Assembly: GCA_034440395.1 (NCBI GenBank)
Contig: JAWXBW010000047.1
Location: forward strand, 5,567-69,566
Direction: 5' to 3'
DNA: 64,000 nt
Origin: Blastochloris sp.
Lineage (GTDB): Bacteria > Verrucomicrobiota > Verrucomicrobiia > Methylacidiphilales > JAAUTS01
Below are positions 4,220 through 64,000 of the stretch, piece by piece. The position numbers and the translations under genes were made by a program. Under the pieces are notes generated by a model, which saw only the letters and a program-made list of their open reading frames with translations, was not told where the DNA came from and made no database searches. Each line of letters begins with the position of its first letter. Position 1 is the first letter of the stretch.

Positions 4220-4354
4220 AAGAGGCAGGATAAAAGACTACGTGGATTCTTTAGGAAGAGCAAGTGCGCACTCTCTTTTCATTTCCAGTTTTGGGTTTGT
4301 TATTAAGTAGCTAAAGTTACTTGCTTAGGTAGGCGTTGCACCTAACTTTAAATA

Positions 4355-4882: not shown

Positions 4883-4915
4883 CGACCCAGTTAGTCTAAG
4901 CTCTACCCATTTATT

Positions 4916-5644
4916 ATGCGTGCTGCTATTTTTAGTGACATCCACAGTAATTTATTTGCTTTTGAAGCTGTCTTAAAAGATATCAAAAAACGTCAGGTAG
5001 ATAAGCTTATTTGCTTGGGTGACATAGTCGGCTACGGAGCTCGCCCAGCTGAGTGTTTAAAAATGGTTCGCAAATCTGGTGCTGATGTCGTGATGGGGAA
5101 TCATGACTTTTATTCCGCAACAAAGGAGTCTCTGGACTGGTTTAATCCTGTTGCGGCAGCGGGTTTGCTTTTTTCCAGAAAAGCCCTAACAGCTGCCCAA
5201 AAAAAATGGCTCCTGCAGCTGCCTCTGTTTAAGAATTTTGATGGGTTTACGGTTGTTCATGCTAGTCTGGCCGATCCGAAAGAATGGGATTACGTGACCG
5301 ATGACCTGATGGCACACCTTCATTTCCTTTCGCAAGAACTACCTGTGTGTTTTATTGGGCACACGCACCAAGTTAAAACTTATCGATTAGAAGAGGGTCG
5401 GGTCTGTAAGCAAGCCTTGACTAAAAATCTTAAACTGAAGAAGGGCGTTAAGTATGTCATTAACGTGGGTTCGGTCGGGCAACCACGCGACAACAACCCA
5501 GACTCTGCCTACGCCATTTATGATACCGTCGAGGGCGTGGTGGAATTTCAACGGGTCAGTTACCCCGTTGATGAAGCGGCCGCAGAAATCATCCAAGCGG
5601 GCCTGCCCGAACATCTAGGTTTACGCTTACGTCTGGGTTGCTAA
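4916..5644 (+). CDS. Metallophosphoesterase (calcineurin-like, ApaH/PrpE/YfcE type)
   Basis: MRAAIFSDIHSN..., LICLGDIVGYG, GNHD and GHTH motifs appear in the canonical order. Confidence 0.85.
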   Translation: MRAAIFSDIHSNLFAFEAVLKDIKKRQVDKLICLGDIVGYGARPAECLKMVRKSGADVVMGNHDFYSATKESLDWFNPVAAAGLLFSRKALTAAQKKWLLQLPLFKNFDGFTVVHASLADPKEWDYVTDDLMAHLHFLSQELPVCFIGHTHQVKTYRLEEGRVCKQALTKNLKLKKGVKYVINVGSVGQPRDNNPDSAYAIYDTVEGVVEFQRVSYPVDEAAAEIIQAGLPEHLGLRLRLGC

Positions 5645-6071
5645 ATGCGGCGCATCTAAATTCGTGCAGAAACTGCCGCCCACGCTTTAATCTGTTGCCA
5701 TTCTAAAGAGTGAAGTATGAAGACCTACTATTTTGTCATCCTTTTTTTATTCCAGCGCCGTGGGCGGGCGATAGCCTTTTAAGCTTCAGGAGTGGGAAGT
5801 TTACTATTTCGATACCGTCTGGATATAAGATCGTCAGCGGGGATCACACTGCTCAATCACCCAGACGGAAGACAGACCACAGTCCCAGATCACAAGGGCA
5901 AAGATTTCTCCTAGTTTCTTGCGCGGTAAATAGGAAAAAATATTTGTTTAGCCACAGATGAATTCATTAAACATAAATAAAGCATAACAAGGGTGTGTGG
6001 CCTACAACGGGCACTGCGCGCACCTTTGATATCCACTGTTGCTATTTGTAGTTATTTTATAGATTTCTTTT

Positions 6072-10652: not shown

Positions 10653-12176
10653 ATGTTTCTTTCTCTTTCCATCCGTAACTTTTACGCTCTATCTGCCTTG
10701 ACACTACTAACGTTCTCCTTGGATGGCTCTGAAGTTGCCACAAGCAAACCCCTCGCCCGTGAGTTCCGTGGGGCTTGGGTGGCCACAGTCTATAACTTAG
10801 ACTGGCCTTCTAAGCCAGGACTGCCTGTGGAAGAACAAAAACGCGAGCTACGCGTTCTCCTTGACCGAGCCAAAAACTTAGGGCTGAACGCCATCGTTTT
10901 TCAAGTGCGCCCTTCCTGCGATGCCCTTTACGCCTCCCCCTACGAGCCATGGTCTCCGTATCTTACTGGCAAAATGGGGGAAGCTCCTCAGCCCTTCTAT
11001 GATCCCCTTGAGTATGCCGTAACCCAAGCTCACGCCCGATGCCTAGAATTACATGCTTGGATCAATCCTTACCGTGCCCGCACAGGCAAGGACTTTGTAC
11101 CTTCCCGGGGGCACATCACAAAAACAAATCCCAGCTGGATAAGAACCTACACGAGTCAAGAATGGCTCGACCCTGGCCTGCCCGAGGTGCGTGAGCATGT
11201 ATTAAAAGTTGTGAGAGACATCGTACGCCGCTACGACATTGATGGGCTGCACATTGACGATTACTTTTATCCCTATCCGAAAGTAAAAAACGGAAAGCGT
11301 CTAGAATTTCCCGACGGCAAAACCTACCAAGCCTATCGCACAAGAGGCGGCCTTTTAGGAAAAAGCGATTGGCGACGGGATAATGTTAACCAGATGGTGC
11401 AGTCCATCCATCAAGTCGTTCGGGAAGAAAAACCGTGGGTAAAATTTGGAGTCAGCCCTTTCGGAATCTGGAAGCCTGGTGTGCCGAAAGGAACCATGGC
11501 TAATGTCGATGCCCGGGAAGATCTCCATGCAGATTCACGGCTTTGGCTACAAGAAGGTTGGCTAGACTATTGTGCGCCACAACTCTACTGGTCACGCGAT
11601 TCCCCTGAGCAGGCCTTTGATCCTTTGCTGACATGGTGGGCCTTGCAAAACACGAAGGGCCGTCACCTCTGGCCGGGCATAGCTACCGAGCGTGTGGGAG
11701 TGAAGCGTCGCCCAGAAGAGATGGTGGCTCAAGTCATGCTCATGCGGTTGCGCCTACAAAGTCAGGGTCATATTCACTGGAACTTTAAACCTCTTTTAAC
11801 TGATCAATTAGGGGTGGGCACCCTTTTAAAGAAAAAAGTTTATACTGAAATAGCCCTTGTTCCAGAATCACCTTGGATGGTTCCTACTCAACTAGGGCGC
11901 CCCACGTTTTTGCTTAAGAGTGAGACCAGTCAAAAGGAATGGTCCCTTTCATGGTCTCTACCACCGAACTCAGCTCCACCTGCTCTCTGGATTTTACGAA
12001 GAAAACGTAGCGGGACTTACGTAACAGAGCTGCTTCCAGCCAGGATGCGCTCTGTCAGCTTCGAAGATACTAGTCTGGCAGAAGTGAGTTTAACCGCAGT
12101 GGATCGCTACGGGCGTTTAAGCGCAGAGCAAAAAAGTCTCCGCCCTCCGCGTGCAGAAAAAGTGGCGCACCAGTAA
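10653..12176 (+). CDS. Glycosyl-hydrolase-like family 10 (GHL10/DUF187, YngK/YddW-like) protein
   Basis: 507 aa with a signal-like N-terminus. FRGAWVATVYNLDWPS...LNAIVFQVRP...HAWINPYR...DGLHIDDYFYP is characteristic of GHL10. Confidence 0.75.
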   Translation: MFLSLSIRNFYALSALTLLTFSLDGSEVATSKPLAREFRGAWVATVYNLDWPSKPGLPVEEQKRELRVLLDRAKNLGLNAIVFQVRPSCDALYASPYEPWSPYLTGKMGEAPQPFYDPLEYAVTQAHARCLELHAWINPYRARTGKDFVPSRGHITKTNPSWIRTYTSQEWLDPGLPEVREHVLKVVRDIVRRYDIDGLHIDDYFYPYPKVKNGKRLEFPDGKTYQAYRTRGGLLGKSDWRRDNVNQMVQSIHQVVREEKPWVKFGVSPFGIWKPGVPKGTMANVDAREDLHADSRLWLQEGWLDYCAPQLYWSRDSPEQAFDPLLTWWALQNTKGRHLWPGIATERVGVKRRPEEMVAQVMLMRLRLQSQGHIHWNFKPLLTDQLGVGTLLKKKVYTEIALVPESPWMVPTQLGRPTFLLKSETSQKEWSLSWSLPPNSAPPALWILRRKRSGTYVTELLPARMRSVSFEDTSLAEVSLTAVDRYGRLSAEQKSLRPPRAEKVAHQ

Positions 12177-12188
12177 AACGCATTTGGA

Positions 12189-13547
12189 CTAGCGAATAAG
12201 GGACGACACTAATGCCTTAGCTCGGGCTAAAGCCTGCTCGGGTGAATGAAGTTTTCCCTCTAACTGTTCATCCATCAAGAGTGTAAGAATATCTCCCAAG
12301 ATTTTCCCTGGCTTAACACCTAATTGTATCAAATCGTTCCCATTGATCAAAGGTGTAGGTTTTAAGTCTTCTTGAGAAATTTCTCCGCGCTTATTTAATA
12401 CAAATTCATAAATATCTAATAAACGGTGACTAGAACTGCAATCGATCCGGTGGAGTTCCACTTCCAGATCCATCGTAGGCCGTGCTAAGAAACGTTTCAA
12501 GGTGCTGACCCGCATGTTCGGCACATCTTTAAAGGCCATGTGATTTGCCACCAGCTCACAAACGTCATGAATCATGTCATTTGAAAAACGTAATCTCCGC
12601 ATGATCGTCTCCGTTTTACGCGCACCGATATGTTCGTGTTCGTTAAAACGGATACGCCCAGTGTGGTCAACTTTATACGTATCAGGCTTAGCAATGTCGT
12701 GGAAGAGGACACCTAAAGCCAGAACGGGATCAGGATTTTTTAAGTGACTAACCATGAGGCGAACATGTTTAAAGACGTCTCCCTCGGGGTGGAATTGCGG
12801 GGGTTGTTCCACACCCTTCATTCGTTCTACTTCAGGAATCCATACTTTAAATAAACCGCTTTGATCCAACAGGTCAAAGGCCTTCAGAGGATTGACCCCA
12901 CAGAGTGCTTTGACCAATTCATCTCGCACCCGTTCGGGGGCTAGGTTGACACTTAGAGGCACCAAAGTGCAGAGAGCTTTCCATGTCTCGATTTCGATTT
13001 CAAAATCCAATTGCGCCGCAAAACGGATGGCACGAAAGAGGCGGAGTTTATCCTCGGTAAAGCGCATGACGGGGTCGCCAATCCCACGAATCCATTGTTT
13101 TTTAAGATCTGCTTGGCCTCCGACGTAATCGATTACTTTCTCCGTTAGTGGATCGTAGAAAAGTCCATTAATAGTAAAGTCTCGTCGCTCAGCGTCCTTC
13201 TCTGGCGTGGTCGGCTGGATGGAGTCAGGACGGCGCCCGTCGGCATAAGAGCCATCACTTCTAAACATAGCAATCTCAAAGGTCTGATTTTGGTGCATGA
13301 TGCGGACGACGCCGAAAGCTTTGCCTTGAAGATCGGTGACTTTAGGGAAAAGTTTTTGGATTTGTTCGACATTGGCGTTGGTGGCTATGTCAATATCTGT
13401 TGCCGGACGTTGTAAGAGATGATCTCGCACGCAGCCTCCAGCGAAGTAGGCGATGTAACCCGCTTGAGTTAATTTTTTAACCACACTACGCGCCCCTTTA
13501 CCGCTAGGGCCATTGATGCCGTCGAGGGTTTGAGTCTGTGCTATCAT
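12189..13547 (-). CDS. cca: CCA-adding tRNA nucleotidyltransferase (PolyA-pol head plus HD domain)
   Basis: 452 aa with YFAGGCVRDHLLQRPATDIDIAT, RRDFTINGLFYD and an HD region (LFHDIAKPDT). Confidence 0.85.
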   Translation of the reverse strand: MIAQTQTLDGINGPSGKGARSVVKKLTQAGYIAYFAGGCVRDHLLQRPATDIDIATNANVEQIQKLFPKVTDLQGKAFGVVRIMHQNQTFEIAMFRSDGSYADGRRPDSIQPTTPEKDAERRDFTINGLFYDPLTEKVIDYVGGQADLKKQWIRGIGDPVMRFTEDKLRLFRAIRFAAQLDFEIEIETWKALCTLVPLSVNLAPERVRDELVKALCGVNPLKAFDLLDQSGLFKVWIPEVERMKGVEQPPQFHPEGDVFKHVRLMVSHLKNPDPVLALGVLFHDIAKPDTYKVDHTGRIRFNEHEHIGARKTETIMRRLRFSNDMIHDVCELVANHMAFKDVPNMRVSTLKRFLARPTMDLEVELHRIDCSSSHRLLDIYEFVLNKRGEISQEDLKPTPLINGNDLIQLGVKPGKILGDILTLLMDEQLEGKLHSPEQALARAKALVSSLIR

Positions 13548-40691: not shown

Positions 40692-41765
40692 ATGGGATTA
40701 ATCAATCAAATGCAGGACTCAGTTGTTCAGCCTGGCGACGGCATAGTCATGAGCAGCCGTGTTCGCTTAGCTAGAAACTTGCACAATAAACCTTTCCCAG
40801 GTTGGTTAAAGAAATCCCAACGTGAGGAACTCCTGCAAATCATCCAACCAGCCTTGCGTAACTTGCCCGAAATGAAGTCTTCCGCCATCCATCAAACGAT
40901 GGATGCCTTCAACCCTCTGGAAAAACAAATGCTGGTAGAGCAACATCTCATCAGCCGCGAACATGCCGCTAAAAACTCGGGCAGCGGTCTGGTGGTTAAT
41001 CAGGAACGCACTCTTAGCGTCATGATTAACGAAGAGGATCACTTGCGACTCCAATCTATCTATCCAGGCTTCCAGCTGGAAGCGGCTTGGGAAGTGATTG
41101 ATAAAATCGACACGGAGTTGGAAGAGGAGCTAGAATTTGCCTATTCCGCTACGCTAGGCTATCTAACGGCATGCCCAACGAATGTGGGCACAGGTATGCG
41201 CGCCTCTGCGATGTTACACTTACCTGGCTTGGTCTTGAGCGAACAGATCAATCAAGTCATAAAATCCGTCAACCAAATCGGGCTGGCCGTGCGTGGCCTC
41301 TATGGCGAAGGCACAGAAGCTCTCGGTAATTTATTCCAAATTTCTAACCAGATGACTCTGGGTGAAAGTGAGCGACAAATTCTTGATCGCCTGACGAAAG
41401 TAGTGAACCACTTAATCGAGCACGAGTTAAATGCCCGCCAAAAGTTACTCCAAGAAAAAGGTCGTATGGTGGCCGATCAACTAGGTCGTGCTTACGGTGT
41501 GATGCAGAACTCTTATTCCATCACGTCTAAAGAAGCACTCAATCTTCTTTCGCTCCTTATTTTAGGAGTGGACTTAGGAATTCTACCGAATAGTTTAAGG
41601 GAAAAGATTGATGAGTTATTTGTCCTTACCCAACCCGCTCATTTGCAACAAGCTGCTGCGCGCAAACTCAACGCCGATGAACGCGACGCTTTCCGTTCCG
41701 ATCTTTTACGTGATAAACTCAAATCTATCCCAGCTCCTAACATAAAAAAATTAAAACTTTTCTAA
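40692..41765 (+). CDS. mcsB: Protein arginine kinase McsB (ATP:guanido phosphotransferase)
   Basis: 357 aa with SSRVRLARNL, MINEEDHLRLQS and CPTNVGTGMRAS. Confidence 0.9.
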   Translation: MGLINQMQDSVVQPGDGIVMSSRVRLARNLHNKPFPGWLKKSQREELLQIIQPALRNLPEMKSSAIHQTMDAFNPLEKQMLVEQHLISREHAAKNSGSGLVVNQERTLSVMINEEDHLRLQSIYPGFQLEAAWEVIDKIDTELEEELEFAYSATLGYLTACPTNVGTGMRASAMLHLPGLVLSEQINQVIKSVNQIGLAVRGLYGEGTEALGNLFQISNQMTLGESERQILDRLTKVVNHLIEHELNARQKLLQEKGRMVADQLGRAYGVMQNSYSITSKEALNLLSLLILGVDLGILPNSLREKIDELFVLTQPAHLQQAAARKLNADERDAFRSDLLRDKLKSIPAPNIKKLKLF

Positions 41766-41795
41766 CCATTTGCACACACCAACAACCATTACATT

Positions 41796-44312
41796 ATGAA
41801 TAATTTTACTCCACGCGCTCAACAAGTTTTGGCTCTCGCCCGCAAGGAAGCCGATCGTTTTAACCATAATTACGTCGGAACAGAGCATCTCCTCCTCGGC
41901 CTGATCAAGCTCGGTCAAGGCGTTGCCGTGAACGTCTTACAAAAAATGGGTCTTGACCTTGAAACAGTCCGTATGGAAGTGGAAAAACAAGTCGGCTCTG
42001 GCCCCGACACTAAAATTTCTGGCAACATTCCTTACACACCTCGAGTAAAAAAAGTTCTAGCCCTTGCTGGTAAAGAAGCCAAAGCTCTCCACCACTCCTA
42101 CGTCGGCACGGAGCATATCTTGCTCGGACTCTTGCGTGAAGGTGATGGTGTGGCCGCACGTGTGCTAAAAACTCTGGACGTTGATCTCGAACGGGCTCGT
42201 AACGAAGTCTTAAAAGAGCTTGATCCTAATTTCGAAGGTTCTGAGCAAGAGGAAGATTTCTCTGGAGGCTCGCAGGAAGCAGCATCTCCTGCTGGCGGTT
42301 CCGCTGCGAGTAAAAAAGATGGAAAGACTCCAGCTCTAAAAGCCTTTGGGCGTGACTTAACGGAAATGGCCGCCAAGGGTGACCTCGATCCCGTCATTGG
42401 TCGTAAAAACGAGATCGAACGCGTGGTTCAGATTCTCTGCCGTCGCAGCAAGAATAATCCCGTCCTCATCGGCGAAGCTGGCGTGGGTAAGACCGCCATC
42501 GTAGAAGGCCTAGCTCAAGAGATCGTGGCGGGTAATGTGCCCGAACTCTTACGGGACAAAAAGGTGATCACCCTAGATTTGGCCCTGATGGTCGCAGGCA
42601 CTAAATACCGCGGACAATTTGAGGAGCGCATTAAAGCGGTCATGGAAGAAATACGTAAATCCAAAAATATTCTGCTCTTCATTGATGAGATGCATACCAT
42701 TGTGGGCGCAGGCTCAGCAGAAGGCGCTATGGATGCCTCAAACATTATCAAGCCCGCCCTCTCCCGCGGCGAGCTTCAGTGTATCGGTGCGACCACGCTG
42801 AACGAGTATCGGAAATATATCGAAAAAGATTCTGCCTTAGAACGCCGTTTCCAGAGCGTGAAGGTGGAGGCTCCTAGTGTTGAAGAAACTATTCTTATCT
42901 TAAAAGGTCTCCGCCCTAAATATGAACAGCATCACAAAGCTCGCATCACAGACGAAGCTCTGGTCGAAGCCACTAAGTTAAGCGACCGCTATCTCACGGG
43001 CAGATTTCTACCAGATAAAGCCATCGACATCATGGACGAGGCTGGTTCCCGCTCTCGCATCAAGGCCACCATGACACCCCCTGAATTAAAGACGATGGAG
43101 GCGGATATTGAAGTCATACGTCAGAGCAAAGAAACGGCGATTAAGGAACAGGACTTTGAAAAAGCTGCCTCGCTGCGCGACAACGAAAAAGCGGCTAAAC
43201 TGAAGCTTGAAACTAGTTTGAGTGATTGGCGCAAACATCGCGATGAACAAATTGTCGAAGTCGGTGCGGATGACATCATGTATGTCATTTCTAAATGGAC
43301 GGGTATTCCCCTTACCCGCTTGGAAGAAAAAGAAACAGAGCGCCTCATCACTATCGGAGATCAATTAAAAGATAAAGTGATCGGCCAAGAAGAAGGTGTG
43401 CAAGCCCTTGCCAAGGCTCTACGCCGTTCCCGTGCTGATTTAAAGGATCCGAAACGACCCATCGGCTCCTTTATTTTCCTCGGCCCCACCGGCGTTGGTA
43501 AAAGTCATTTAGCTAAGGCTCTCGCTCAACAAGTCTTCGGAGAGGCTGATGCCCTCATCCAGCTCGACATGAGCGAATACATGGAAAAGTTTAACGTCTC
43601 GCGCCTTGTCGGATCGCCTCCTGGCTATGTCGGGCACGAAGAAGGTGGCCAGCTCACGGAAAAAGTGCGGCGACGCCCTTACTGCGTCGTGCTGTTTGAC
43701 GAGATCGAGAAGGCACACCCTGATGTCTGGAACATCCTCCTGCAAATTCTGGAAGATGGACAGATCACGGACAGCCTTGGCCGTAAGATCGATTTCAGAA
43801 ATACCATCATCATCATGACCTCCAACGTGGGCGCAGAATTGATCAAGAAACAAAACGTGGTGGGATTCTCTGCCACCGACACGGATCAAACGAGTTACGA
43901 TGTGGTGAAAGAAAAACTCTTGGCGGAAGCGAAAAAAGTCTTCAAGCCCGAGTTCTTAAATCGTTTAACAGATATCATCGTGTTCCATCAACTTACACGC
44001 GAACACCTGAGTAAGATTGTCCATCTCGAAGTGGCTAAGGTTGAAGACCGTCTCAAATCGAGATCTATTTCCTTCAAGATCAGCCCTGAAGCCTTAGAAT
44101 ACCTGATCGATAAAGGTTACGATCCAGCCTATGGAGCGCGGCCTCTGCGGCGTGCAATTGAGAAGTACGTGGAAGATCCCATCGCTGAGGAGCTCATCCG
44201 CGGCACGATCAAGAGCAACTCCGTGGTTACGATTACGTTGAAGGATAAAGAATTAGTCTTCACCTCCGACTCTATTATTGAAATAGAGACCCTAAAAACT
44301 GGCAGTCTTTAA
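41796..44312 (+). CDS. clpC: ATP-dependent Clp protease ATP-binding subunit ClpC
   Basis: 838 aa with a double Clp_N repeat, GEAGVGKTAIVEGLA, a UVR-like linker (KEQDFEKAASLRDNE), GPTGVGKSHLAKALA and SEYMEK. Confidence 0.95.
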   Translation: MNNFTPRAQQVLALARKEADRFNHNYVGTEHLLLGLIKLGQGVAVNVLQKMGLDLETVRMEVEKQVGSGPDTKISGNIPYTPRVKKVLALAGKEAKALHHSYVGTEHILLGLLREGDGVAARVLKTLDVDLERARNEVLKELDPNFEGSEQEEDFSGGSQEAASPAGGSAASKKDGKTPALKAFGRDLTEMAAKGDLDPVIGRKNEIERVVQILCRRSKNNPVLIGEAGVGKTAIVEGLAQEIVAGNVPELLRDKKVITLDLALMVAGTKYRGQFEERIKAVMEEIRKSKNILLFIDEMHTIVGAGSAEGAMDASNIIKPALSRGELQCIGATTLNEYRKYIEKDSALERRFQSVKVEAPSVEETILILKGLRPKYEQHHKARITDEALVEATKLSDRYLTGRFLPDKAIDIMDEAGSRSRIKATMTPPELKTMEADIEVIRQSKETAIKEQDFEKAASLRDNEKAAKLKLETSLSDWRKHRDEQIVEVGADDIMYVISKWTGIPLTRLEEKETERLITIGDQLKDKVIGQEEGVQALAKALRRSRADLKDPKRPIGSFIFLGPTGVGKSHLAKALAQQVFGEADALIQLDMSEYMEKFNVSRLVGSPPGYVGHEEGGQLTEKVRRRPYCVVLFDEIEKAHPDVWNILLQILEDGQITDSLGRKIDFRNTIIIMTSNVGAELIKKQNVVGFSATDTDQTSYDVVKEKLLAEAKKVFKPEFLNRLTDIIVFHQLTREHLSKIVHLEVAKVEDRLKSRSISFKISPEALEYLIDKGYDPAYGARPLRRAIEKYVEDPIAEELIRGTIKSNSVVTITLKDKELVFTSDSIIEIETLKTGSL

Positions 44313-55945: not shown

Positions 55946-56194
55946 GGCAAGGCTTTGCGCAAGTTGATAACAAGGTGCCTTAGGTTCTTTAAACCTTACG
56001 TTTCGGTAAAAGCGTTCCGTATTGCGTCTTGAATCTTACTGAGTTCACGGAGCCCTTTCACCATTTCAAAGAAGCACTGCCCGCCGCTCTTGAGTTCCCA
56101 CAGTTTGCCGAGGCGTTCTTTAGGACTTTGCCGTTTGTCAGCTTCACCACGACGTCGAGGTAGAATTTTTCGTTGCTGATTAAAATTTAAAAAC

Positions 56195-56398
56195 TCAGTT
56201 CTTCTTCTCGAAGTCTGGCGGTTCCTCGCGCAGAGTCATGGTGCCGCTCTCCTCTTTGCCCTTAGCCATCCGCATTCGGAACGCTGCGGCCTTCTTTTCC
56301 GTATAATCCCTGCGTTCCTCACGGGTCATGTCCTTGGTAGCCTCATAAATCCTAGCCTGAATATCGTGCTTCATTTTCACGCAATCGATCCGGGGCAT
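56195..56398 (-). CDS. Hypothetical small charged protein (67 aa)
   Basis: Intact ORF 22 nt downstream of the PIN pseudogene: MPRIDCVKMKHDIQARIYEATKDMTREERRDYTEKKAAAFRMRMAKGKEE... No family recognised. Confidence 0.35.
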   Translation of the reverse strand: MPRIDCVKMKHDIQARIYEATKDMTREERRDYTEKKAAAFRMRMAKGKEESGTMTLREEPPDFEKKN

Positions 56399-56420
56399 TC
56401 CATCAAACTGTTTCCAAAAG

Positions 56421-56894
56421 TTAGTCGTCTTCGAGATTCACCTCCTTGGGCCTTACAATCTGTATCATTGCGTAGCCTTCTGCCAGATTTACCGCATTGA
56501 ATCCACGAATACGATCCATCCGCACGATATATTTGAAATTCCACGATACGATGGCATCCGCCCTCGCCACCGTGGCTGCGGCCACATGCAGACAATCTTC
56601 CCTCTAACGCACAGCGACCACTCCCGCTGAAATGTAGGCGTTGGCCAAGTCATGGACTTCATCATCCACACGCACCGTTTCGCGCCCGCTGACAGGGACA
56701 GAATCCAGAATCCTTCCTACGGGCTCTGGAGCACCTTCCAATTCTTCTTCCACCACTTTACTGGTCAACAGCACGGCCAACCCATTGGAAAAAAATTCGA
56801 TGACCTTCAGTCAGTCCGCATCCCAGCATTCCGCGCTGTCGAAACAGCCGCCGAAGACGGAGGTATCCAAGCATAAGCGCCATTTGCGTTTCAT
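56421..56894 (-). pseudogene. PIN-domain (VapC-like) gene with two in-frame stops
   Basis: Hand translation from ATG 56894-56892 covers exactly 158 codons: MKRKWRLCLDTSVFGGCFDSAECWDAD*LKVIEFFSNGLAVLLTSKVVEEELEGAPEPV...AGVVAVR*REDCLHVAAATVARADAIVSWNFKYIVRMDRIRGFNAVNLAEGYAMIQIVRPKEV...*. The stops are TGA at 56811-56813 and TAG at 56604-56606. Track ORFs 56377..56595, 56489..56671, 56641..56907 and 56652..56876 are fragments or shadows of it. Confidence 0.7.
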
Positions 56895-57171
56895 TGCGTC
56901 GGTTTAATACTTTGTTCATACTGCGTAAAGGGTTTGTTTGAAGGTAATGCGAATTTTTGTATTACTAAAATTAAGGCGTAGTAGTGGTAATAAAGCAAAT
57001 TTAAATGACTGGATATTTAGAAAGTATTATCGAGAATCTCACTTATCTTTTACCTGAATGTTCACGCTTTGATCTGCCGCCATAAATTGTTAGACACAAG
57101 ATTAAGATACTTCTTTTCTCAAGGTTGTTTAGTAGATACGCTTTAAATCGAAAATTGTTACCTCAACACTC

Positions 57172-57438
57172 ATGACACTTATGATTAAATTATCCTTACT
57201 TCTTTTAACTAGCTTCCTCTTCATCGGCTGCGGTGAAACGAATTATAGTTTATACTCGACGAACCAAGGCGAGAAGACGCAAGCTCTCTACAAGATCAAT
57301 AACGACACGGGCGAGACATGGATTCTTCAGGGCGATTTAACGGAAGTCACCGCAACCAATGCCGCCGCCCAATATTTCCAAGGCTGGAAACTTGTGAAGT
57401 CGCACGCAGAGGCTAAAGCCGAAGCGTTGAAGCGTTAA
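57172..57438 (+). CDS. Small lipoprotein, hypothetical
   Basis: 88 aa with signal plus lipobox MTLMIKLSLLLLTSFLFIGC. Confidence 0.55.
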   Translation: MTLMIKLSLLLLTSFLFIGCGETNYSLYSTNQGEKTQALYKINNDTGETWILQGDLTEVTATNAAAQYFQGWKLVKSHAEAKAEALKR

Positions 57439-57485
57439 GGGCAAAGAGCTTTCTCCGCAGATTACACAGGTTTTTAACAAAGGTT

Positions 57486-57509
57486 GCAGATTCCTAAAAA
57501 AGAATCTGC
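57486..57509 (+). terminator. Possible terminator hairpin after the lipoprotein gene
   Basis: GCAGATTC (57486-57493) pairs with GAATCTGC (57502-57509), an 8-bp stem. The downstream T tract is weak. Confidence 0.3.
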
Positions 57510-57619
57510 GTAAATCTTTAAAATCTACGGACAATTCTTTTCTTGGTCTTCTAGGTTTTGAGTTTCAAGTATCCTCTGCCGAAGGTATACGATATTGACC
57601 AACGTTCTTTATTATCTCA

Positions 57620-58222
57620 TTGTCTCAGGCCATGGGTAAGGAAAGTGTTGAACAAATCATTGGTAAATCCATCCGCACCTGCCGGACTCAGCAAAGTATC
57701 ACGATCGAACAGTTGTCTCAGATGGTGGCTCTAACTAAGGGTCAGATTTCTAAAATAGAAAATGGTCTAGTATCTTCTCCCGTGGGAACGTTAACACGGA
57801 TAGCCCAAGCGTTAGGAACGGAGCCAAGCACCTTTTTCAAAACCAGTCAGGACCGTAAGTCCGCCCAGTTAGTGCGGAGTCATGAGCGTAAGCCCGTGGT
57901 AGGGCGCGCCTCTAAGATGGGACATTATTATCATTCTTTAGCTTTTGATTTACCTTTTCAAAAGTCTTTTGAACCTTATTTGATGATCATCGAGGAACAG
58001 AAACTTGATCCCAAAAAGAACTCGTTCCAACACTCCGGTCATGAAATGATTTTTATGCTCAAAGGACAAATGAGCTATCGTCATGATGGATCAATCTATG
58101 ATTTAGAAGTGGGGGACACGCTTTACTTCGACGCTAATAAAGAGCACGGACCTGAGAAAATTAAAAAATCACCCGTGCATTTTCTCAGCATTATCAGTAA
58201 TCATACCCCACCCATTTCTTGA
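57620..58222 (+). CDS. XRE-family HTH plus cupin-domain transcriptional regulator (PuuR-like architecture)
   Basis: HTH_3 region IEQLSQMVALTKGQISKIENG. C-terminal cupin region GHEMIFMLKGQMSY...GDTLYFDANKEHGP. The track start is TTG 57620, with an alternative ATG at 57632. Confidence 0.8.
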   Translation: MSQAMGKESVEQIIGKSIRTCRTQQSITIEQLSQMVALTKGQISKIENGLVSSPVGTLTRIAQALGTEPSTFFKTSQDRKSAQLVRSHERKPVVGRASKMGHYYHSLAFDLPFQKSFEPYLMIIEEQKLDPKKNSFQHSGHEMIFMLKGQMSYRHDGSIYDLEVGDTLYFDANKEHGPEKIKKSPVHFLSIISNHTPPIS

Positions 58223-59550
58223 AGCATGGCTTTAACAAAACGAGCACCACCTTCAAACTGAGTTAGGGGAAAAGTCTCATTGGGCGCATGAGCCTGACAA
58301 TCAGGTAGTCCCAGACCTGCTAGGATGACCGGCACTTGAAGTTGTTTTTGTAAAAGTGCGGCGACAGGAATGCTTAAACCTTCTCGCGTCCAAGCGGGTG
58401 CGCGGCCAAAGGCTTGAGTTAAGGCACGACTCACAAGGTTCATCGAAGGATGATCAGGAGCCGTGAAAAAGGGGTCGCCGCCATGGTCATAAATGCAGCG
58501 GCCTGTGACGTGCTCACACATTAATTCTTGCTTAAACCAAGTCTGCACAAGCTGGGCAATGCGTTGAGGGTCTTGTCCTGGCACCAGCCGGAAACTGACT
58601 TTTGCTGAGGCGCAGGCGGGGATGATGGTTTTGCTTCCGCTGCCTTGGTAACCGCTCGAGATTCCGTTAATTTCCGCCGTGGGACGAGACCATACTTTTT
58701 CTAAGACGGAGTAGTTTCTCTCACCCGCAGAGGGCTTTATACCAGTGGCTTGCTCAAACCAAGTTTCATTCCAAGGGAGGTCTTGCCAGCTCTTAAGCTC
58801 AGCGGGACTTACCTCGATCAGTCCATCGTAAAAATGCGGGATGGTAATTTCTCCTGCGTCATTATGCAGACGAGTTAGGATTCTCGCTAAGGCCAGTGCG
58901 GGATTCGGCGTCGGGCCTCCGAACATGCCCGAATGTAAATCGCAACGTGGTCCGTTAATTTCAAAGTCAAAACAATCGATCCCGCGTAGACCTGTGGTAA
59001 TGGCCGGCCAGCCAGTCTCGATCATGCTGGTATCACAAATCAGAACCGCATCACAACGCAAGGCCTCTTTATTTTTCTCCACCCATGCTGCGAGGTGCGG
59101 GCTACCTACCTCCTCTTCTCCTTCCAGCATGACGGTGACCTTCACGGGCAAAGCTCTTGCAGCGAGCATTTCACGTAAGCCGAGGAGCAGGGAAAAAGTT
59201 TGGCCTTTATTATCTGTCGCACCACGAGCGACTATTTTTCCGTCACGCAGTTCTGGACTAAACGGAGGTGACTGCCAGAGATCAAGAGGCTCGGCTGGTT
59301 GCACGTCATAGTGTCCGTAAATGAGAAGTGTGCTGGCAGTGTTAACCTGGGCGGGAAACTCTGCTAGGATTATGGGCGGTCCACCTGTTTCTTCTAAGCT
59401 GACGCTAGCTCCCCAACTCTGCATCAGTTCTAGTAACCAAATTGCGCAGGAGCGCATGTCAGCAGCATGTTCGGGGCGAGCGCTAACGGTGGGAAAGCGG
59501 AGGTAATGGAAAAAGGTATCGAGCCCTTCTTGCGCGGACCAAGACTTCAT
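58201..59550 (-). CDS. M20-family metallopeptidase/amidohydrolase (ArgE/DapE/ACY1/CPG2 type)
   Basis: 449 aa with LLIYGHYDVQP, ARGATDNKGQ and LEGEEEVGS. It has a 4-nt overlap with the upstream oxidase gene. Confidence 0.8.
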   Translation of the reverse strand: MKSWSAQEGLDTFFHYLRFPTVSARPEHAADMRSCAIWLLELMQSWGASVSLEETGGPPIILAEFPAQVNTASTLLIYGHYDVQPAEPLDLWQSPPFSPELRDGKIVARGATDNKGQTFSLLLGLREMLAARALPVKVTVMLEGEEEVGSPHLAAWVEKNKEALRCDAVLICDTSMIETGWPAITTGLRGIDCFDFEINGPRCDLHSGMFGGPTPNPALALARILTRLHNDAGEITIPHFYDGLIEVSPAELKSWQDLPWNETWFEQATGIKPSAGERNYSVLEKVWSRPTAEINGISSGYQGSGSKTIIPACASAKVSFRLVPGQDPQRIAQLVQTWFKQELMCEHVTGRCIYDHGGDPFFTAPDHPSMNLVSRALTQAFGRAPAWTREGLSIPVAALLQKQLQVPVILAGLGLPDCQAHAPNETFPLTQFEGGARFVKAMLQEMGGV

Positions 59551-60692
59551 GCAGTTTGAAAACGGCTTAATCTAAAAGGATGTAGATCCACTTTAGGTTT
59601 TTTTTGTTGAATCAGATCACACGCTATCTCACCCACGGCACTAGCATATTTATAACCATGACCGCTAAAACCGCCTAGGACCCAGCAGCCGGGCTCACCA
59701 GGTAGATGATCAAGAATGGGGGAGCGGTCGGGAGTGTTTTCAAAAAAACATGTTTCCATGGAAAGCACACTGCCGTTGGCGTCAGGAAAACATTGGGCGA
59801 GGAACTCTCTCATTTCCGTTTCATCTATTTTATCGGGATGCCGTCTCTCTAGGTCAGGATCAATAGCGGCGGATGGAACTTCCCGTAAACGTCCAAGTTT
59901 GAAGCCAGGCATACCATGGATGGGGAAGCCGTAGAAATGTCCCGTCTGTTCGGAGTCTATAATCCAAACAGGAAGTTGACCTTTAGAAAGTTGCGCTGCA
60001 TTTCTTTGGGGAGCAAACCAGCCCAGCACACAACGCTCAGCGGTAACGGGAATTTTTTCTTGGCCAAATAATTTCCCCAACCACGCGCCTGCCGTGACCA
60101 CCAGCTGTTCTGCGTCATAGTGCCCACGATCCGTTTCAATACGATAGATGCTGCCACGTTTTTCCCAGCCTAAGGTTTTTTCCTGACCATGTATTTCCGC
60201 TCCTGCAGCTAGGGCTAAATTGACATGCGTGCAGATGGCGAGCTCGGGCAGAACAAAGCCAGAACCGTGTTGATAGACTGCCATCATGGTGTCAGTGGGA
60301 TGGATAGCGGGAAAACGTCGCCTCACTTCATGCGCATCGAGAATTTCATGGGAAATGTCGCAGGTGCGGCAGGCATCACGCGAACCCCAGAAGATGCGGC
60401 TGTGGGGCTCGGCCACGTCGATGCTGCCCACGGCATGGAAAAGCTTTTCCCCAGATTGCTGTTCTGCATCGCGCCATAACTCAACCGCACGCATGACCAT
60501 GGGCACGTAGGTCTCGCTCTCGTGCAAACCTAAACGCAAGATACGCGTCGCACCGTGGGAGCTTCCTTTAGTATTAGGAATGGAAAACTGTTCTAGCCCT
60601 AACACGTTCAGACCGGCTTGAGCCAAACGATAGCAAGCGGCACTGCCCATCCCGCCGACGCCGATGACGGCTACATCAAATACTTTACTCAT
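59547..60692 (-). CDS. Monomeric sarcosine oxidase / N-methyltryptophan oxidase-like FAD enzyme (MSOX/SolA family)
   Basis: 381 aa with FDVAVIGVGGMGSAACYRLA, SSHGATRILR and GGFSGHGYKYASAVGE (the MSOX-family C-terminal motif). Confidence 0.8.
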   Translation of the reverse strand: MSKVFDVAVIGVGGMGSAACYRLAQAGLNVLGLEQFSIPNTKGSSHGATRILRLGLHESETYVPMVMRAVELWRDAEQQSGEKLFHAVGSIDVAEPHSRIFWGSRDACRTCDISHEILDAHEVRRRFPAIHPTDTMMAVYQHGSGFVLPELAICTHVNLALAAGAEIHGQEKTLGWEKRGSIYRIETDRGHYDAEQLVVTAGAWLGKLFGQEKIPVTAERCVLGWFAPQRNAAQLSKGQLPVWIIDSEQTGHFYGFPIHGMPGFKLGRLREVPSAAIDPDLERRHPDKIDETEMREFLAQCFPDANGSVLSMETCFFENTPDRSPILDHLPGEPGCWVLGGFSGHGYKYASAVGEIACDLIQQKKPKVDLHPFRLSRFQTA

Positions 60693-60711
60693 TTCACTCG
60701 TGCTGGGGTTG

Positions 60712-62076
60712 TTAGAAGAACGTTAGATAGTGCTCTGTTTCCCACTTAGAAACGAAGCGATGGTAGTCATTCCATTCCTGCCATTTAAGTTTAAGGAATT
60801 CATTTTGGATCGGCCCCATGGCATCGAGCACCACGTTATCCTGCTCTAGTTCCGTCAGGGCTTCCCGCATGGATTGTGGCAGTGTGCTCAGTCCCTTCCG
60901 ATAAATATCCTGCTTTGTCATGAGGTAGAGGTTGCCTAAATTAGGCTCGGGACAGATTAATTTCTTTTCAATCCCGTCCATGCCAGCCGCAAGGTAAGCG
61001 GCTAGGGCTAGGTAGGGATTTACGGCAGCGGAGATGGTGCGATCCTCAATGTGTCCGGGCCCGCAGATACGCAGCATCTGGGTCCGATTATTGTCGCCAT
61101 AACTGATGAAGGCTGGTGTCCACGTAAAGCCGGAGCGTGAGCTTTGTAGCCCAGGACCGATGAGTAATCGTTTGTAACAGTTAATCGTAGGCGAGGTCAC
61201 CGCACAAAGAGCGGGCGCATGTTTAATGATGCCAGCCAGAAAATGGTAGGCCAACGTAGATTGACCAAAGCCTTTAGCATCTTCCATGTCGGTGAAAAGA
61301 TTAGATCCAGAATTTTTGTCCGCTAAATGATAATGGATGTGCGCTCCGCTTCCTGTGCGATTTGAAAAGGGCTTAGCCATATGGGTAGCAATGGCACCAT
61401 ACTTCGTCGCTACTTGGCTGGTCATCATTTTAAAAAACGTCATGCGATCAGCTGTCGTCATAGCATCGGAGTAATCAAAATTAATTTCATACTGACCATT
61501 CCCATCTTCATGATCGGCTTGATAAACTCCCCAACCGAGTTGGTTACAATACTCTGTAATGTCCTGCAAATAACCCATGGCTGGAGCGATGCCTTTATAG
61601 TCATAACAGGGCTTAGCTAGGTTATCTATTTTAGCAGGATCCCAGGGATGAATTTCACCGTGCTCATCTTTGGTGACCAGAAAATGTTCCGGCTCAATCC
61701 CGACATTAAAAATAGCACCTAGGCGTTCTTCCGCTAGATTAAGGATACGACGCAGATTCGTGCGCGCGCAGTATGGATGCGGTTTATCATCCACAAATAT
61801 ATTCGTAGCGAAGCGAGCCACTCCTGGGCTCCAGCCTAATGGGGAATAGGTGTCTAGATCAATCCGAGCCATCATGTCATGGGAGTTAGGGCCCTGCCCT
61901 AGACCCCAGACCGCCGCTCCCGCAAAACCTGCTCCTTCCGTAAATAAGTTATCTACAAAGGAGACCGGACACATCTTAACTTTAGCAGAGCCGTGGATGT
62001 CCACGAACTGAGCCAGCACGTAACGAATGTTGTCTTGGGTTAATTGCTGTTTGATCTCCGCTAGCGTTTTAATCAT
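60712..62076 (-). CDS. Glutamine-synthetase-like gamma-glutamyl-amine ligase (GmaS/PuuA-like)
   Basis: GS fold with IRYVLAQFVDIHGSAKVK, HEDGNGQYEINF, GSGAHIHYHL and NPYLALAAYLAAG. ATG 62076 (MIKTLAEIKQ) is preferred over the track's GTG 62121. Confidence 0.8.
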   Translation of the reverse strand: MIKTLAEIKQQLTQDNIRYVLAQFVDIHGSAKVKMCPVSFVDNLFTEGAGFAGAAVWGLGQGPNSHDMMARIDLDTYSPLGWSPGVARFATNIFVDDKPHPYCARTNLRRILNLAEERLGAIFNVGIEPEHFLVTKDEHGEIHPWDPAKIDNLAKPCYDYKGIAPAMGYLQDITEYCNQLGWGVYQADHEDGNGQYEINFDYSDAMTTADRMTFFKMMTSQVATKYGAIATHMAKPFSNRTGSGAHIHYHLADKNSGSNLFTDMEDAKGFGQSTLAYHFLAGIIKHAPALCAVTSPTINCYKRLLIGPGLQSSRSGFTWTPAFISYGDNNRTQMLRICGPGHIEDRTISAAVNPYLALAAYLAAGMDGIEKKLICPEPNLGNLYLMTKQDIYRKGLSTLPQSMREALTELEQDNVVLDAMGPIQNEFLKLKWQEWNDYHRFVSKWETEHYLTFF

Positions 62077-62190
62077 AAAAAAGAATCCTGTTTGAAAGTT
62101 ACGAAAAGTTCTCATCTTCACGAGAAGGAGTCAATTTAAAATGAAAATAAAGTTGCATTTAAGGAAACTCGGCTTTAATTAGTTGTTATT

Positions 62191-63105
62191 ATGTGTGGAA
62201 TCGCCGCTTTCTTTTCTAAGAACTCTACCTACGAAAGTAGGCTAGGAGAATTATTCGTTCCTATGCTGGACTGCTTAACGGGTCGTGGCCCTGACAGTGC
62301 AGGTTTTGCGGTCTATCGTGATCCCGCCCCCGCAGGCAGCACCAAGATCGTGGCACAACATCCTTCGCTGCATTATGATTGGAAAAGTTATTTTGATAAA
62401 GTCGGTAGGGTCAATAGCGTAAAAATTCTTTCCACCCACGCATTGGCCTACGTCAGCGGAGAGTCTGAGATTCTACGTGCGGCGGCAGAAGCAGCTGATC
62501 CTGCCGTCACGGTAATGAGTGTCGGTTCAACGATAGAAATCTACAAAGAAATGGGGCTGCCCTGCAAAGTGATGGCTCAATTCAATCTCAGCACGGCACA
62601 AGGCAGTCACGCCATCGGCCATACTCGTATGGCGACGGAGAGCGCCGTAACAACCGCAGGCTCACATCCCTTTTCTACGGGTATGGATCTCTGCCTCGTC
62701 CATAATGGTTCCCTCAGTAATCATAACAGATTACGTCGTAATCTGGAGCGTCAAGGCATTCGCTTCCGCACGGATAATGATTCTGAAGTGGCGGCAGGCT
62801 ATTTAGCGTGGCGTTTGCGACAAGGCGATTCACTCGAATCTTCCTTGAAGGGTGCTCTCCGTGATCTGGATGGATTCTTTACCTTTGCTATAGGCACAAA
62901 AGACGGTTTCGCCGTGCTTCGCGACCCCATTGCTTGTAAGCCTGCCATCCTCGCCGAGACCGATGACTACGTAGCGATGGCCTCCGAATACCGTTCTCTG
63001 GCTCATTTGCCAAACATAGATAAAGCCCGTATTTGGGAACCTGAACCTGCCCGCATCTACACTTGGAACAAAGCGGACTCCTCCCTAAATTTGAAAGCTG
63101 CTTAA
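62191..63105 (+). CDS. Class II glutamine amidotransferase (N-methylglutamate synthase subunit A / GlxB-like)
   Basis: MCGIAAFFSK has the N-terminal nucleophile Cys2, followed by HTRMATES and HNGSLSNH. Confidence 0.8.
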   Translation: MCGIAAFFSKNSTYESRLGELFVPMLDCLTGRGPDSAGFAVYRDPAPAGSTKIVAQHPSLHYDWKSYFDKVGRVNSVKILSTHALAYVSGESEILRAAAEAADPAVTVMSVGSTIEIYKEMGLPCKVMAQFNLSTAQGSHAIGHTRMATESAVTTAGSHPFSTGMDLCLVHNGSLSNHNRLRRNLERQGIRFRTDNDSEVAAGYLAWRLRQGDSLESSLKGALRDLDGFFTFAIGTKDGFAVLRDPIACKPAILAETDDYVAMASEYRSLAHLPNIDKARIWEPEPARIYTWNKADSSLNLKAA

Positions 63106-63785
63106 TGAATTTTGATCTAAGCCAAGTTAAACTACGTGAGGTTAATCAGGCCTTACACGACCTGCCCGAAGCCGGGGTGACGGAAACGATTCACCTGCAT
63201 AACCCGCGCGGAGCCCATGCCGTGGCGTGCGGATTACGTGTAGCCGCTAAAATAGAGGCACACGGCCCTGTGGGCTATTACTGCGCTGGAATGAATCAAA
63301 AAGCTGAAATCACGGTGCACGGCAATGCTGGCACGGGAGTGGCGGAGAACATGATGTCTGGTCTCGTGCGTGTGAAGGGGAATGCGAGTCAATCGGCCGG
63401 TGCCACAGCTCATGGCGGCCTACTCATCATTGAGGGTGACGCCTCGGCGCGCTGCGGCATTTCGCTCAAGGGTGCCGACATCGTCGTGCAGGGTTCGGTC
63501 GGACACATGAGTGCTTTCATGGCGCAGGCGGGGCGCATGGTAATTTATGGTGATGCGGGCGAGGCTCTCGGAGACTCCATCTACGAGGCACGGCTCTACG
63601 TGCGGGGTAGCGTGGCCAGCCTAGGTGCAGACTGCATAGAAAAAGAAATGCGGGATGAACACAAGGCCGAGTTGACCGAGTTGTTAAGCAAGGCTGATTT
63701 ACCAGTGCAGATTGATGGGTTTCGTCGTTACGGCAGCGCTCGCAGTCTTTATAGTTTTAAAGTGACTAACGCTTCTAGTTATTAA
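63105..63785 (+). CDS. GXGXG-motif protein (glutamate-synthase C-terminal-domain-like; MgsB/GlxC-like)
   Basis: Start ATG 63105 overlaps the previous stop (TAATG). Repeated beta-helix units are present: VHGNAGTGVAENM, VKGNASQSAGATAHGG, IEGDASARCG, VQGSVGHMSAF and IYGDAGEALGD. Confidence 0.8.
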   Translation: MNFDLSQVKLREVNQALHDLPEAGVTETIHLHNPRGAHAVACGLRVAAKIEAHGPVGYYCAGMNQKAEITVHGNAGTGVAENMMSGLVRVKGNASQSAGATAHGGLLIIEGDASARCGISLKGADIVVQGSVGHMSAFMAQAGRMVIYGDAGEALGDSIYEARLYVRGSVASLGADCIEKEMRDEHKAELTELLSKADLPVQIDGFRRYGSARSLYSFKVTNASSY

Positions 63786-63790
63786 ATGTT

Positions 63791-64000
63791 ATGAATAATC
63801 AGTCCCCTTCTCTTCGTGAATCCGCTACCTACAATCGTCATATCATCCATGAGATCCAGCGTGCGGCGGAAACAGGCATCTATGATATTCGTGGCTGGGG
63901 TGCCAAGCGTGCGCTACCTAATTTTGATGATCTCGTTTTTCTCGGTGCCAGTATGTCACGTTACCCGCTGGAGGGCTACCGCGAGAAATGTGCGACAGAT
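63791..64000 (+). CDS. FMN-binding glutamate-synthase-family protein (MgsC/GlxD-like), 5' part only
   Basis: Not in the track because it runs off the right edge. Hand translation from ATG 63791 gives MNNQSPSLRESATYNRHIIHEIQRAAETGIYDIRGWGAKRALPNFDDLVFLGASMSRYPLEGYREKCATD... Confidence 0.75.
   Translation, partial: MNNQSPSLRESATYNRHIIHEIQRAAETGIYDIRGWGAKRALPNFDDLVFLGASMSRYPLEGYREKCATD

Follow-up and report, generated by a model that had tools for sequence, protein, structure and literature searches.

A methylamine-type N-methylglutamate cluster of Verrucomicrobiota in which a monomeric MSOX-family oxidase probably takes the place of MgdABCD

How might a bacterium complete the N-methylglutamate (NMG) pathway when the genes for its last enzyme are missing from the cluster? 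The question is raised by a 64,000-nucleotide stretch of DNA (hereafter the window; contig JAWXBW010000047.1), near the end of which seven genes lie together: a glutamine-synthetase-like ligase, a single-subunit flavin amine oxidase and an M20 hydrolase on one strand, a divergent trio of glutamate-synthase-type genes on the other, and a regulator. NMG clusters of the canonical kind are carried by Methyloversatilis universalis, Methylobacterium extorquens, Methylocella silvestris and marine Roseobacters. Their composition is gmaS-mgsABC-mgdABCD (PMC3160333, PMC7948447). In the window, all seven open reading frames (ORFs) are present and each has a strong match in profile searches (Table 1). We find that this locus is probably a variant of the NMG pathway, as read from its genes, in which a monomeric MSOX-family oxidase would regenerate glutamate in place of MgdABCD.

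We identified the ligase by profile searches, diagnostic residues and a tree. It passes the cutoff of TIGR03105, a family named 'type III glutamate--ammonia ligase' (525 bits; cutoff 469.6), and falls below the cutoffs of the GlnA model (293 bits; cutoff 429) and of the gamma-glutamylputrescine synthetase model GGputSyn (194 bits; cutoff 650). Among solved structures its best relative is 9qur, a 'glutamate--methylamine ligase' (433 bits), followed by the Rhodovulum enzyme RhGmaS (288 bits), with true glutamine synthetases (GS) scoring 235 bits or less. The structure of RhGmaS supplies the marks that separate GmaS from GS: Asp50' is replaced by Ala, and the Glu-flap glutamate is lost, with Trp300 instead (PMC7948447). 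It also assigns catalytic residues (Arg312, Asp177 and Glu186) and a methylamine pocket made of Lys30', Tyr147, Gln175, Asp177, Glu179, Glu186 and Asn188 (PMC7948447). The window ligase has F-A at the site of the GS F-D, which is the loss of Asp50'; its flap loop, IGPGLQSSRSGFTWTP, contains no Glu and has a Trp aligned with Trp300; and it keeps all seven pocket residues (Lys30', Tyr147, Gln175, Asp177, Glu179, Glu186 and Asn188) together with Arg312 and Arg317. The signature and the pocket are kept in all 23 Verrucomicrobial homologues that we aligned, and the residues of the window ligase at these sites are those of GmaS proteins adjoining mgdABCD. In a neighbour-joining (NJ) tree rooted on GS, the window ligase falls within the GmaS radiation, and the Verrucomicrobial proteins form one clade, whose sister is a clade containing 9qur and 13 mgdABCD-linked GmaS. 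By these features the ligase is a predicted GmaS, not a glutamine synthetase or PuuA.

The divergent trio runs in the order class II amidotransferase, GXGXG protein, and flavin mononucleotide (FMN) glutamate-synthase-domain protein and adjoins gmaS, an arrangement that is the same in all related loci. The first protein, MgsA, begins with MCGIAAF, so that the nucleophile Cys follows the Met. Its identity to the first trio gene elsewhere is 42-72% (46-61% for loci bearing mgdABCD). The corresponding values across cluster types are 55-72% for MgsB (59-67% for mgdABCD-bearing loci) and, across all cluster types and apparent phyla, 76-96% for MgsC (76-82% for mgdABCD-bearing loci). Several MgsC homologues carry the JGI name 'methylamine---glutamate N-methyltransferase subunit C'. 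The trio is, by gene order and orthology, a predicted MgsABC, the N-methylglutamate synthase. We note separately that the constraint on the single subunit MgsC is unusually strong beside that on MgsA, and that GmaS is only 35-49% identical across cluster types and apparent phyla, over which MgsC reaches the values just given.

The window ends inside mgsC, and an initial annotation of the sequence had cautioned that mgd-like genes could follow just downstream. We therefore turned to a metagenomic contig, L001 (ERZ505514 NODE_489, 90.8 kb), which equals the window over 11,810 nt with zero mismatches; because of this match we regard it as the same contig and as a valid extension of the window. 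On L001, MgsC is complete at 441 aa (11601-12926). Downstream of mgsC come tyrS, which lies on the other strand, then yhbY, a gene for a TonB-dependent receptor and a HpaII-type restriction-modification pair. Neither mgdABCD nor soxBDAG was found in the 64-kb window or in the 15 kb downstream (~75 kb in all). The large and DAO-sized ORFs of the window encode ribonucleotide reductase, ClpC, PEP carboxylase, AcrB, Tsp, RibBA, MnmA and McsB.

Directly after gmaS lies instead the gene for the single-subunit oxidase, which we call type 1. Its score against NF008425 is 417 bits (cutoff 257); against the soxA_mon model TIGR01377 it stays below the cutoff (253 bits; cutoff 479.65). Among solved relatives, MSOX scores ~200 bits and E. 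coli MTOX 188 bits. Residues with a known role in MSOX are Cys315 (the cysteine of the covalent flavin adenine dinucleotide, FAD), Lys265, and Arg52 with Lys348 (carboxylate binding). The window oxidase keeps Cys315, Lys265 and Lys348, as well as His46, Arg50 and Arg53, the equivalents of MSOX His45, Arg49 and Arg52. The position of MSOX His269 is occupied by Arg in the window oxidase and in 16 of 22 clade members, whereas MSOX, 7exs and 57 of 70 sister-group sequences have His there. Further residues specific to the clade are Glu271, Glu318, Arg323, His252 and Ile244. Since the His269 equivalent is absent and the TIGR01377 score is below its cutoff, we consider the protein a member of the MSOX/MTOX family rather than a bona fide sarcosine oxidase.

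The genomic distribution of the type-1 oxidase ties it closely to the other genes of the cluster. We searched a set of genomes, one for each species, with an alignment of oxidase homologues and obtained 12 loci at 55% identity or more, all from metagenome-assembled genomes (MAGs) of Verrucomicrobiota (Akkermansiaceae, Chthoniobacterales, Terrimicrobiaceae, Verrucomicrobiaceae and 'Spartobacteria') except for one contig, L015, from a bin labelled Betaproteobacteria. In every one of the 12, gmaS is directly upstream of the oxidase gene and the mgs genes are on the other side, complete in 11; the incomplete set is that of L015, where the contig stops inside mgsA. The M20 gene is present in 10 of them. 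The 68 oxidase homologues with at most 47% identity lie in unrelated neighbourhoods, without any of the remaining six cluster genes within 10 kb. ORF clustering around the 12 genome loci revealed no shared genes beyond the seven of the cluster, the flanks being unrelated housekeeping genes; because these flanks vary by genome, the cluster behaves as a self-contained module. Ten further type-1 loci came from look-ups with the FMN subunit, look-ups with the M20 protein and a metagenome scan, and all 23 non-redundant type-1 oxidases (23/23) sit directly downstream of gmaS. In an NJ tree they form a monophyletic, Verrucomicrobia-specific clade. Its sister is an unlinked MTOX-like group (44% identity), not any of the other oxidase types described below. 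The sister clade (41-47% identity) is hosted mostly by Chloroflexota, with haloarchaea and Methylobacterium in addition, and its neighbourhoods contain no NMG genes and no M20 gene; they feature PAC2, a class IV aminotransferase, SMP-30 and a peptide-type ABC transporter.

We found that the slot held by the type-1 oxidase can be filled in other ways. In the cultured Phragmitibacter flavus (GCA_005780165.1; L087 5419-6570) and in L090 (5801-6928), the gene directly after gmaS encodes a different oxidase, type 2. It also belongs to the MSOX/MTOX family (NF008425, 394 bits), and it is 32-34% identical to the window oxidase; no M20 gene is present in either locus. GmaS of type-1 and type-2 loci is about 73-75% identical. 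Because GmaS remains ~75% identical but the type-1 and type-2 oxidases are 32% identical, the oxidase appears to have been exchanged in a cluster whose other parts were inherited, and from these comparisons the swap looks like a non-orthologous displacement within one phylum.

A metagenome sample gave a broader view. We collected 80 loci (L093-L172) anchored on the FMN subunit and classified them with queries from a verified canonical locus, L114, which has soxB-, soxD-, soxA- and soxG-like genes. Of these, 47 were classifiable and 33 were too short or undetermined. The classifiable loci comprised 25 with mgdABCD, five with a type-1 oxidase, five with an MSOX-like oxidase that we term type 3 (NF008425, ~228 bits) and 12 with another DAO-family gene, type 4, so that a single oxidase is present in 22/47 clusters and mgdABCD in 25/47. 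Types 3 and 4 occur in the order gmaS-mgsABC-oxidase, usually with the regulator next (e.g., L113, L120, L128, L130 and L145), and these lineages are probably non-Verrucomicrobial. Over all sets, mgdABCD was not found within 10 kb in 42 single-oxidase loci, while identical searches detected it in 25 others; the two occur together in none of the 67 classified loci. We also compared oxidase types 1 to 3 for a shared second-carboxylate residue and observed that the His269 equivalent is lost in all three, each differently. Each of the four single-subunit DAO-family types is monophyletic in the NJ tree and is found in NMG clusters without mgdABCD. Single-subunit oxidases have thus been recruited to NMG clusters repeatedly and independently, and the single-oxidase layout appears to be common in metagenomes. 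Our searches of the open-access literature turned up no account of an N-methylglutamate oxidase, nor any of an NMG cluster with a single oxidase.

Taken together, these results bear out much of the initial annotation. It had proposed an NMG-type cluster (GmaS plus MgsABC) with a non-canonical third part, and profiles, signature residues and trio orthology agree. The GS-like protein does group with GmaS and not with bona fide glutamine synthetases, the oxidase and M20 genes are co-conserved with the synthase trio, and the 15 kb beyond the end of the window hold no mgdABCD. The suggestion that a monomeric MSOX-type enzyme stands in for MgdABCD has been strengthened by the four oxidase lineages. 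Its further statement that the substrate is unknown goes too far, as the amine-pocket residues of the ligase are those of canonical GmaS.

We propose the following scheme. The host would be a Verrucomicrobium akin to Akkermansiaceae, for which methylamine, and perhaps further primary amines of very small size, would serve as a nitrogen source in three steps: (i) GmaS would use ATP to ligate the amine to the gamma-carboxyl of glutamate; (ii) MgsABC would convert the gamma-glutamyl amide and glutamate to N-methylglutamate and ammonia; and (iii) the single-subunit oxidase, predicted to be covalently flavinylated, would act with O2 on the N-methyl group to give glutamate, formaldehyde and H2O2. 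The last enzyme would replace the tetrahydrofolate (THF)-linked, heterotetrameric MgdABCD. We infer the substrate of the oxidase (N-methylglutamate), its electron acceptor and products, and the amine specificity of the ligase from sequence. In this scheme the XRE-cupin protein would be the usual regulator of the cluster, and the M20 protein an accessory that is often present but not essential, most likely an amidohydrolase of N-acyl amino acids or dipeptides.

The M20 protein scores 438 bits against PRK09104 (cutoff 327), and its best solved relatives are 4mmo, 4g1p and 4ruh, that is, Sso-CP2, Dug1p and CNDP2 (206-187 bits). By inspection of the alignment to 4mmo we found the motifs HYD, TDNKG, GEEE, CDTS and AHAPNE. 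Of the 20 type-1 loci long enough to be evaluated, 18 have the gene, and look-ups that start from M20 lead to this cluster as well. It is nonetheless dispensable: four loci with sequence past the oxidase (L010, L017 and the two type-2 loci) are without it. A second M20 subfamily, of the carbamoylase/allantoate-amidohydrolase type (NF006770, 629 bits), adjoins a type-3 or type-4 oxidase gene in three loci, and in two short loci it follows mgsC (overall L113 11400-13154, L115, L105, L120 and L128), and in two of these loci it is accompanied by HutD. Counting M20 genes of either kind, we find them in 21/42 single-oxidase loci versus 0/25 canonical ones (p = 5e-6, with no correction for shared ancestry). 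Two observations concern genes inserted near M20. In five relatives from one subclade (L174 7465-7884, L173 7628-7996, L015, L018 and L096), the oxidase and M20 genes are separated by a small GNAT gene; the pairing of an acetylase with a deacylase hints at N-acyl chemistry. One relative, L089, has a gene for a BBE/FAD_binding_4-type oxidase (4181-5728) that sits between the M20 and oxidase genes and is read from the opposite strand.

A different division of labour between oxidase and hydrolase is conceivable, if rather improbable in our estimate. The oxidase might make N-formyl-L-glutamate, in a four-electron reaction, or another N-acyl-glutamate, from which M20 would free glutamate and formate; demethylation would then be formaldehyde-free and THF-independent. 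The histidine route to which HutD belongs runs through N-formylglutamate. Such chemistry would explain why M20 proteins of two unrelated subfamilies accompany single oxidases and never mgdABCD, and it would also explain HutD after the carbamoylase-like M20 in two loci.

The neighbouring genes are in keeping with methylated-amine use, and the regulator is of a kind that canonical clusters also have. Against the PuuR model the regulator scores 45 bits (cutoff 211). Homologues with HTH_3 and Cupin_2 domains are found in 16 of 23 type-1 loci and in 16 of 25 canonical mgdABCD loci (30-39% identity in the latter); because of its presence in canonical clusters, we consider it an ordinary component of NMG clusters and no Puu element. 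Amt-family transporters adjoin the type-1 clusters L016, L018 and L089 (12239-13654) as well as five canonical clusters. In P. flavus, 5-9 kb from the cluster (L087 14647-20103), there are a dmmA-family gene (NF041259, 87.5 bits; cutoff 60), a DUF3445 gene, a Fer2 reductase gene and a copper amine oxidase gene, and dmm homologues of the DmmA or DUF3445 type are also near canonical and type-4 clusters. Use of methylated amines fits these Amt, dmmA-family and DUF3445 neighbours, and the variable neighbourhood as a whole suggests islands for scavenging amine nitrogen.

Several points weigh against our preferred scheme or limit it. The substrate of the oxidase is not readable from homology, because identity to solved MSOX is low (~34-36%), the scores for MSOX and MTOX are similar and the His269 equivalent is missing. 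MSOX-family enzymes also take many secondary amines. The absence of mgdABCD was established only for ~75 kb of this contig and for 10-kb neighbourhoods of the single-oxidase loci, and five undetermined metagenomic loci with flanks of at least 3 kb have neither mgdABCD nor an oxidase nearby; since these evaluable NMG-type loci carry neither gene type, the third step can be encoded elsewhere. In addition, the chemistry may partly differ from the textbook NMG route, because that route has no M20 step and M20 is enriched in the single-oxidase variants. Some of these points would suit a reading in which the oxidase and M20 act outside NMG turnover, on another N-methyl amino acid, a dipeptide or an N-acyl amino acid, and have no more than operon and regulon in common with gmaS, while N-methylglutamate is demethylated by MgdABCD or another enzyme encoded elsewhere. 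The broad secondary-amine specificity of MSOX/MTOX and the fact that CNDP/Dug1-type M20 enzymes are dipeptidases would suit it. We nevertheless think it unlikely: the adjacency of type-1 oxidases to gmaS is without exception, a different MSOX-family gene has come to occupy the slot in clusters that are otherwise still ~75% identical, NMG clusters of other bacteria have acquired two more DAO lineages, and mgdABCD and a single oxidase never coincide in the 67 classified loci. It is likewise quite unlikely, by our judgement, that the cluster applies the same chemistry to another small primary amine, such as ethanolamine or ethylamine, through a gamma-glutamyl amide and then an N-alkylglutamate from which the oxidase frees the matching aldehyde. 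GmaS enzymes accept several small amines, and RhGmaS takes ethylamine, propylamine and hydroxylamine (PMC7948447). Genes of ethanolamine use also occur close by: in L091 (11399-15686) the cluster is fused to eutBC, an EutT-like gene and an ethanolamine permease gene (TIGR00908, 414 bits; cutoff 381), and the regulator stands at the distal end; EutB adjoins the cluster in L016; and an APC permease gene lies inside that of L017. However, the eut genes make up a complete, independent ethanolamine route, and their adjacency may reflect a shared nitrogen-scavenging island. Amt and dmm neighbours are more frequent and are common to canonical clusters, and the pocket residues of the ligase equal those of canonical, mgdABCD-linked GmaS.

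The initial annotation had further suggested that the locus mixes the logic of the NMG pathway with that of the Puu route for putrescine. In such a route the ligase would gamma-glutamylate an amine, the oxidase would act on the gamma-glutamyl intermediate and M20, replacing PuuD, would remove the glutamyl group. The resemblance lies in the gene types, which are superficially alike (a GS-like ligase, an FAD oxidase, a hydrolase and an HTH-cupin regulator), and in the enrichment of M20 in single-oxidase clusters, where it has no assigned step. This part of the annotation found no support in our analysis, and we consider a Puu-like route very unlikely. Ligase and regulator score far below the cutoffs for gamma-glutamylputrescine synthetase and PuuR (194 vs 650 bits and 45 vs 211 bits), regulator homologues reside within canonical mgdABCD clusters, and no aldehyde dehydrogenase gene is present in the cluster. 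A Puu-type route would leave MgsABC without a function, yet the trio is never absent from these clusters and shows very high conservation. In addition, the oxidase belongs with the MSOX enzymes, which act on secondary amines; M20 is missing from four single-oxidase loci; and nothing shows a PuuD-like role for it. Finally, the NCBI family name of the ligase and the glutamate-synthase domains of the trio might suggest a GS/glutamate synthase-like assimilation of ammonium (GlnT plus GlxBCD) with unrelated neighbours. The ligase, however, is without the ammonium-binding Asp50' and the Glu-flap glutamate and is GmaS-like at every diagnostic site, which makes this reading exceedingly improbable. We therefore retain the NMG variant with a single-subunit oxidase as the probable one.

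The layout of the locus is given in Table 1. All seven genes are where the initial annotation had placed them, except that we corrected two starts: that of mgsB is ATG 63105, not TTG 63063, and that of the regulator is most likely ATG 57632, with TTG 57620 as an alternative. The likely start of gmaS is the ATG at 62076, although its reading frame stays open to 62121. An ATGA overlap joins the oxidase stop to the M20 start, which makes translational coupling of the two genes plausible. The regulator and M20 genes are convergent, with a 22-nt overlap. We searched the intergenic regions and found no Rfam family, sigma-70 promoter, terminator or inverted repeat above chance; the region between the divergent operons presumably holds both promoters and the operator.

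Table 1. Features of the single-oxidase NMG locus, in window coordinates
Feature	Coordinates	Strand	Evidence
XRE-type helix-turn-helix (HTH) + cupin regulator	57632..58222	+	HTH_3 37 bits, Cupin_2 44 bits; 196-aa gene call
M20 metallo-hydrolase, CNDP2/Dug1/Sso-CP2 dipeptidase/acylase type	58201..59550	-	PF01546 Peptidase_M20 96 bits, PF07687 M20_dimer 63 bits
Single-subunit MSOX/MTOX-family flavin amine oxidase (type 1), proposed N-methylglutamate oxidase	59547..60692	-	PF01266 DAO 163 bits
Predicted GmaS, gamma-glutamylmethylamide synthetase, 454 aa	60712..62076	-	TIGR03105 525 bits; Gln-synt_C 285 bits
Divergent intergenic region, gmaS-oxidase-M20 vs mgsABC	62077..62190	.	Read from sequence
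Predicted MgsA, class II (Ntn) glutamine-amidotransferase-like subunit	62191..63105	+	GATase_6 72 bits, GATase_7 64 bits
Predicted MgsB, GXGXG-motif subunit, 226 aa	63105..63785	+	PF01493 37.6 bits vs cutoff 32.5
Predicted MgsC, FMN glutamate-synthase-domain subunit, 5' part (first 70 codons)	63791..64000	+	PF01645 Glu_synthase on extended contig

We made some further observations on the source of the DNA and on the rest of the contig. Proteins identical to the window MgsC and M20 carry the NCBI label of a 'Blastochloris sp.' MAG, and the bin of L015 is labelled Betaproteobacteria. The closest genome comes from Akkermansiaceae JTS-AC442, at 82-95% amino-acid identity, and every other relative belongs to Verrucomicrobiota; both labels are probably due to mis-binning. 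Elsewhere in the window, a gene for a McsB-type protein-arginine kinase lies immediately 5' of clpC (40692-44312). The stretch at 55946-57600, between an ADP-ribosylglycohydrolase gene and the regulator, has a GC content of 0.42-0.45 versus ~0.51 around it and contains tiny ORFs only (gene calls of 53-88 aa), with no Pfam hit. Beyond the window, the restriction-modification pair on L001 (17980-20320) consists of a cytosine methyltransferase and a HpaII-type restriction enzyme.

Methylamine use is usually inferred from the joint presence of gmaS, mgsABC and mgdABCD, and genomes that are gmaS-positive and mgd-negative look 'incomplete'. If the oxidases described here do demethylate N-methylglutamate, the scavenging of nitrogen from methylated amines would reach into Verrucomicrobiota and other phyla that pathway-based annotation has missed. 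The one-carbon (C1) unit would in that case be released as free formaldehyde (or formate), along with H2O2, and would bypass the folate pool, which points to a role in scavenging nitrogen and not in methylotrophic growth. An N-methylglutamate oxidase that is soluble and monomeric would, if confirmed, also be a convenient enzyme for biosensors or biocatalysis. The hypothesis is directly testable, because the cultured P. flavus bears a sister cluster by dimethylamine-monooxygenase-like genes.

How does this locus compare with known systems? It shares with canonical NMG clusters an identical GmaS signature and pocket, the MgsABC order with an FMN subunit that is ~80% identical, an XRE-HTH and cupin regulator, and occasional Amt or dmm neighbours. 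It differs from them in that the window contig is without mgdABCD and has an MSOX-family oxidase gene directly after gmaS, plus an M20 hydrolase gene; in that gmaS is divergent from mgsABC, whereas the canonical genes are co-directional; and in the predicted C1 product, which here would be free formaldehyde with H2O2 and in the canonical pathway is methylene-THF. E. coli Puu (PuuA, PuuB, PuuC, PuuD and PuuR) has the same gene types (ligase, DAO-family oxidase, hydrolase and HTH-cupin protein), but neither a PuuC-type aldehyde dehydrogenase nor a C26 hydrolase is found in our cluster or among its conserved neighbours, and MgsABC is present. The M20 protein has the two-domain architecture and metal-ligand motifs of CNDP2, Dug1p and Sulfolobus Sso-CP2; unlike these, it is coupled to an oxidase in an amine-catabolic operon. 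The oxidase resembles MSOX (1EL5 and 1ZOV) and E. coli SolA/MTOX (2UZZ) in family, length and the equivalent of the covalent-FAD Cys315. Unlike the characterised enzymes and the nearest sister clade, its clade is obligately linked to gmaS/mgsABC. With MgdABCD/SoxBDAG, the oxidase has in common a DAO fold, which it shares with the beta subunit at ~21% identity. It is one 381-aa protein rather than four subunits and lacks counterparts of the alpha subunit, which is GcvT-like and binds THF, and of the delta and gamma subunits; we propose it as their functional equivalent, which would carry out the oxidative demethylation of an N-methyl amino acid.

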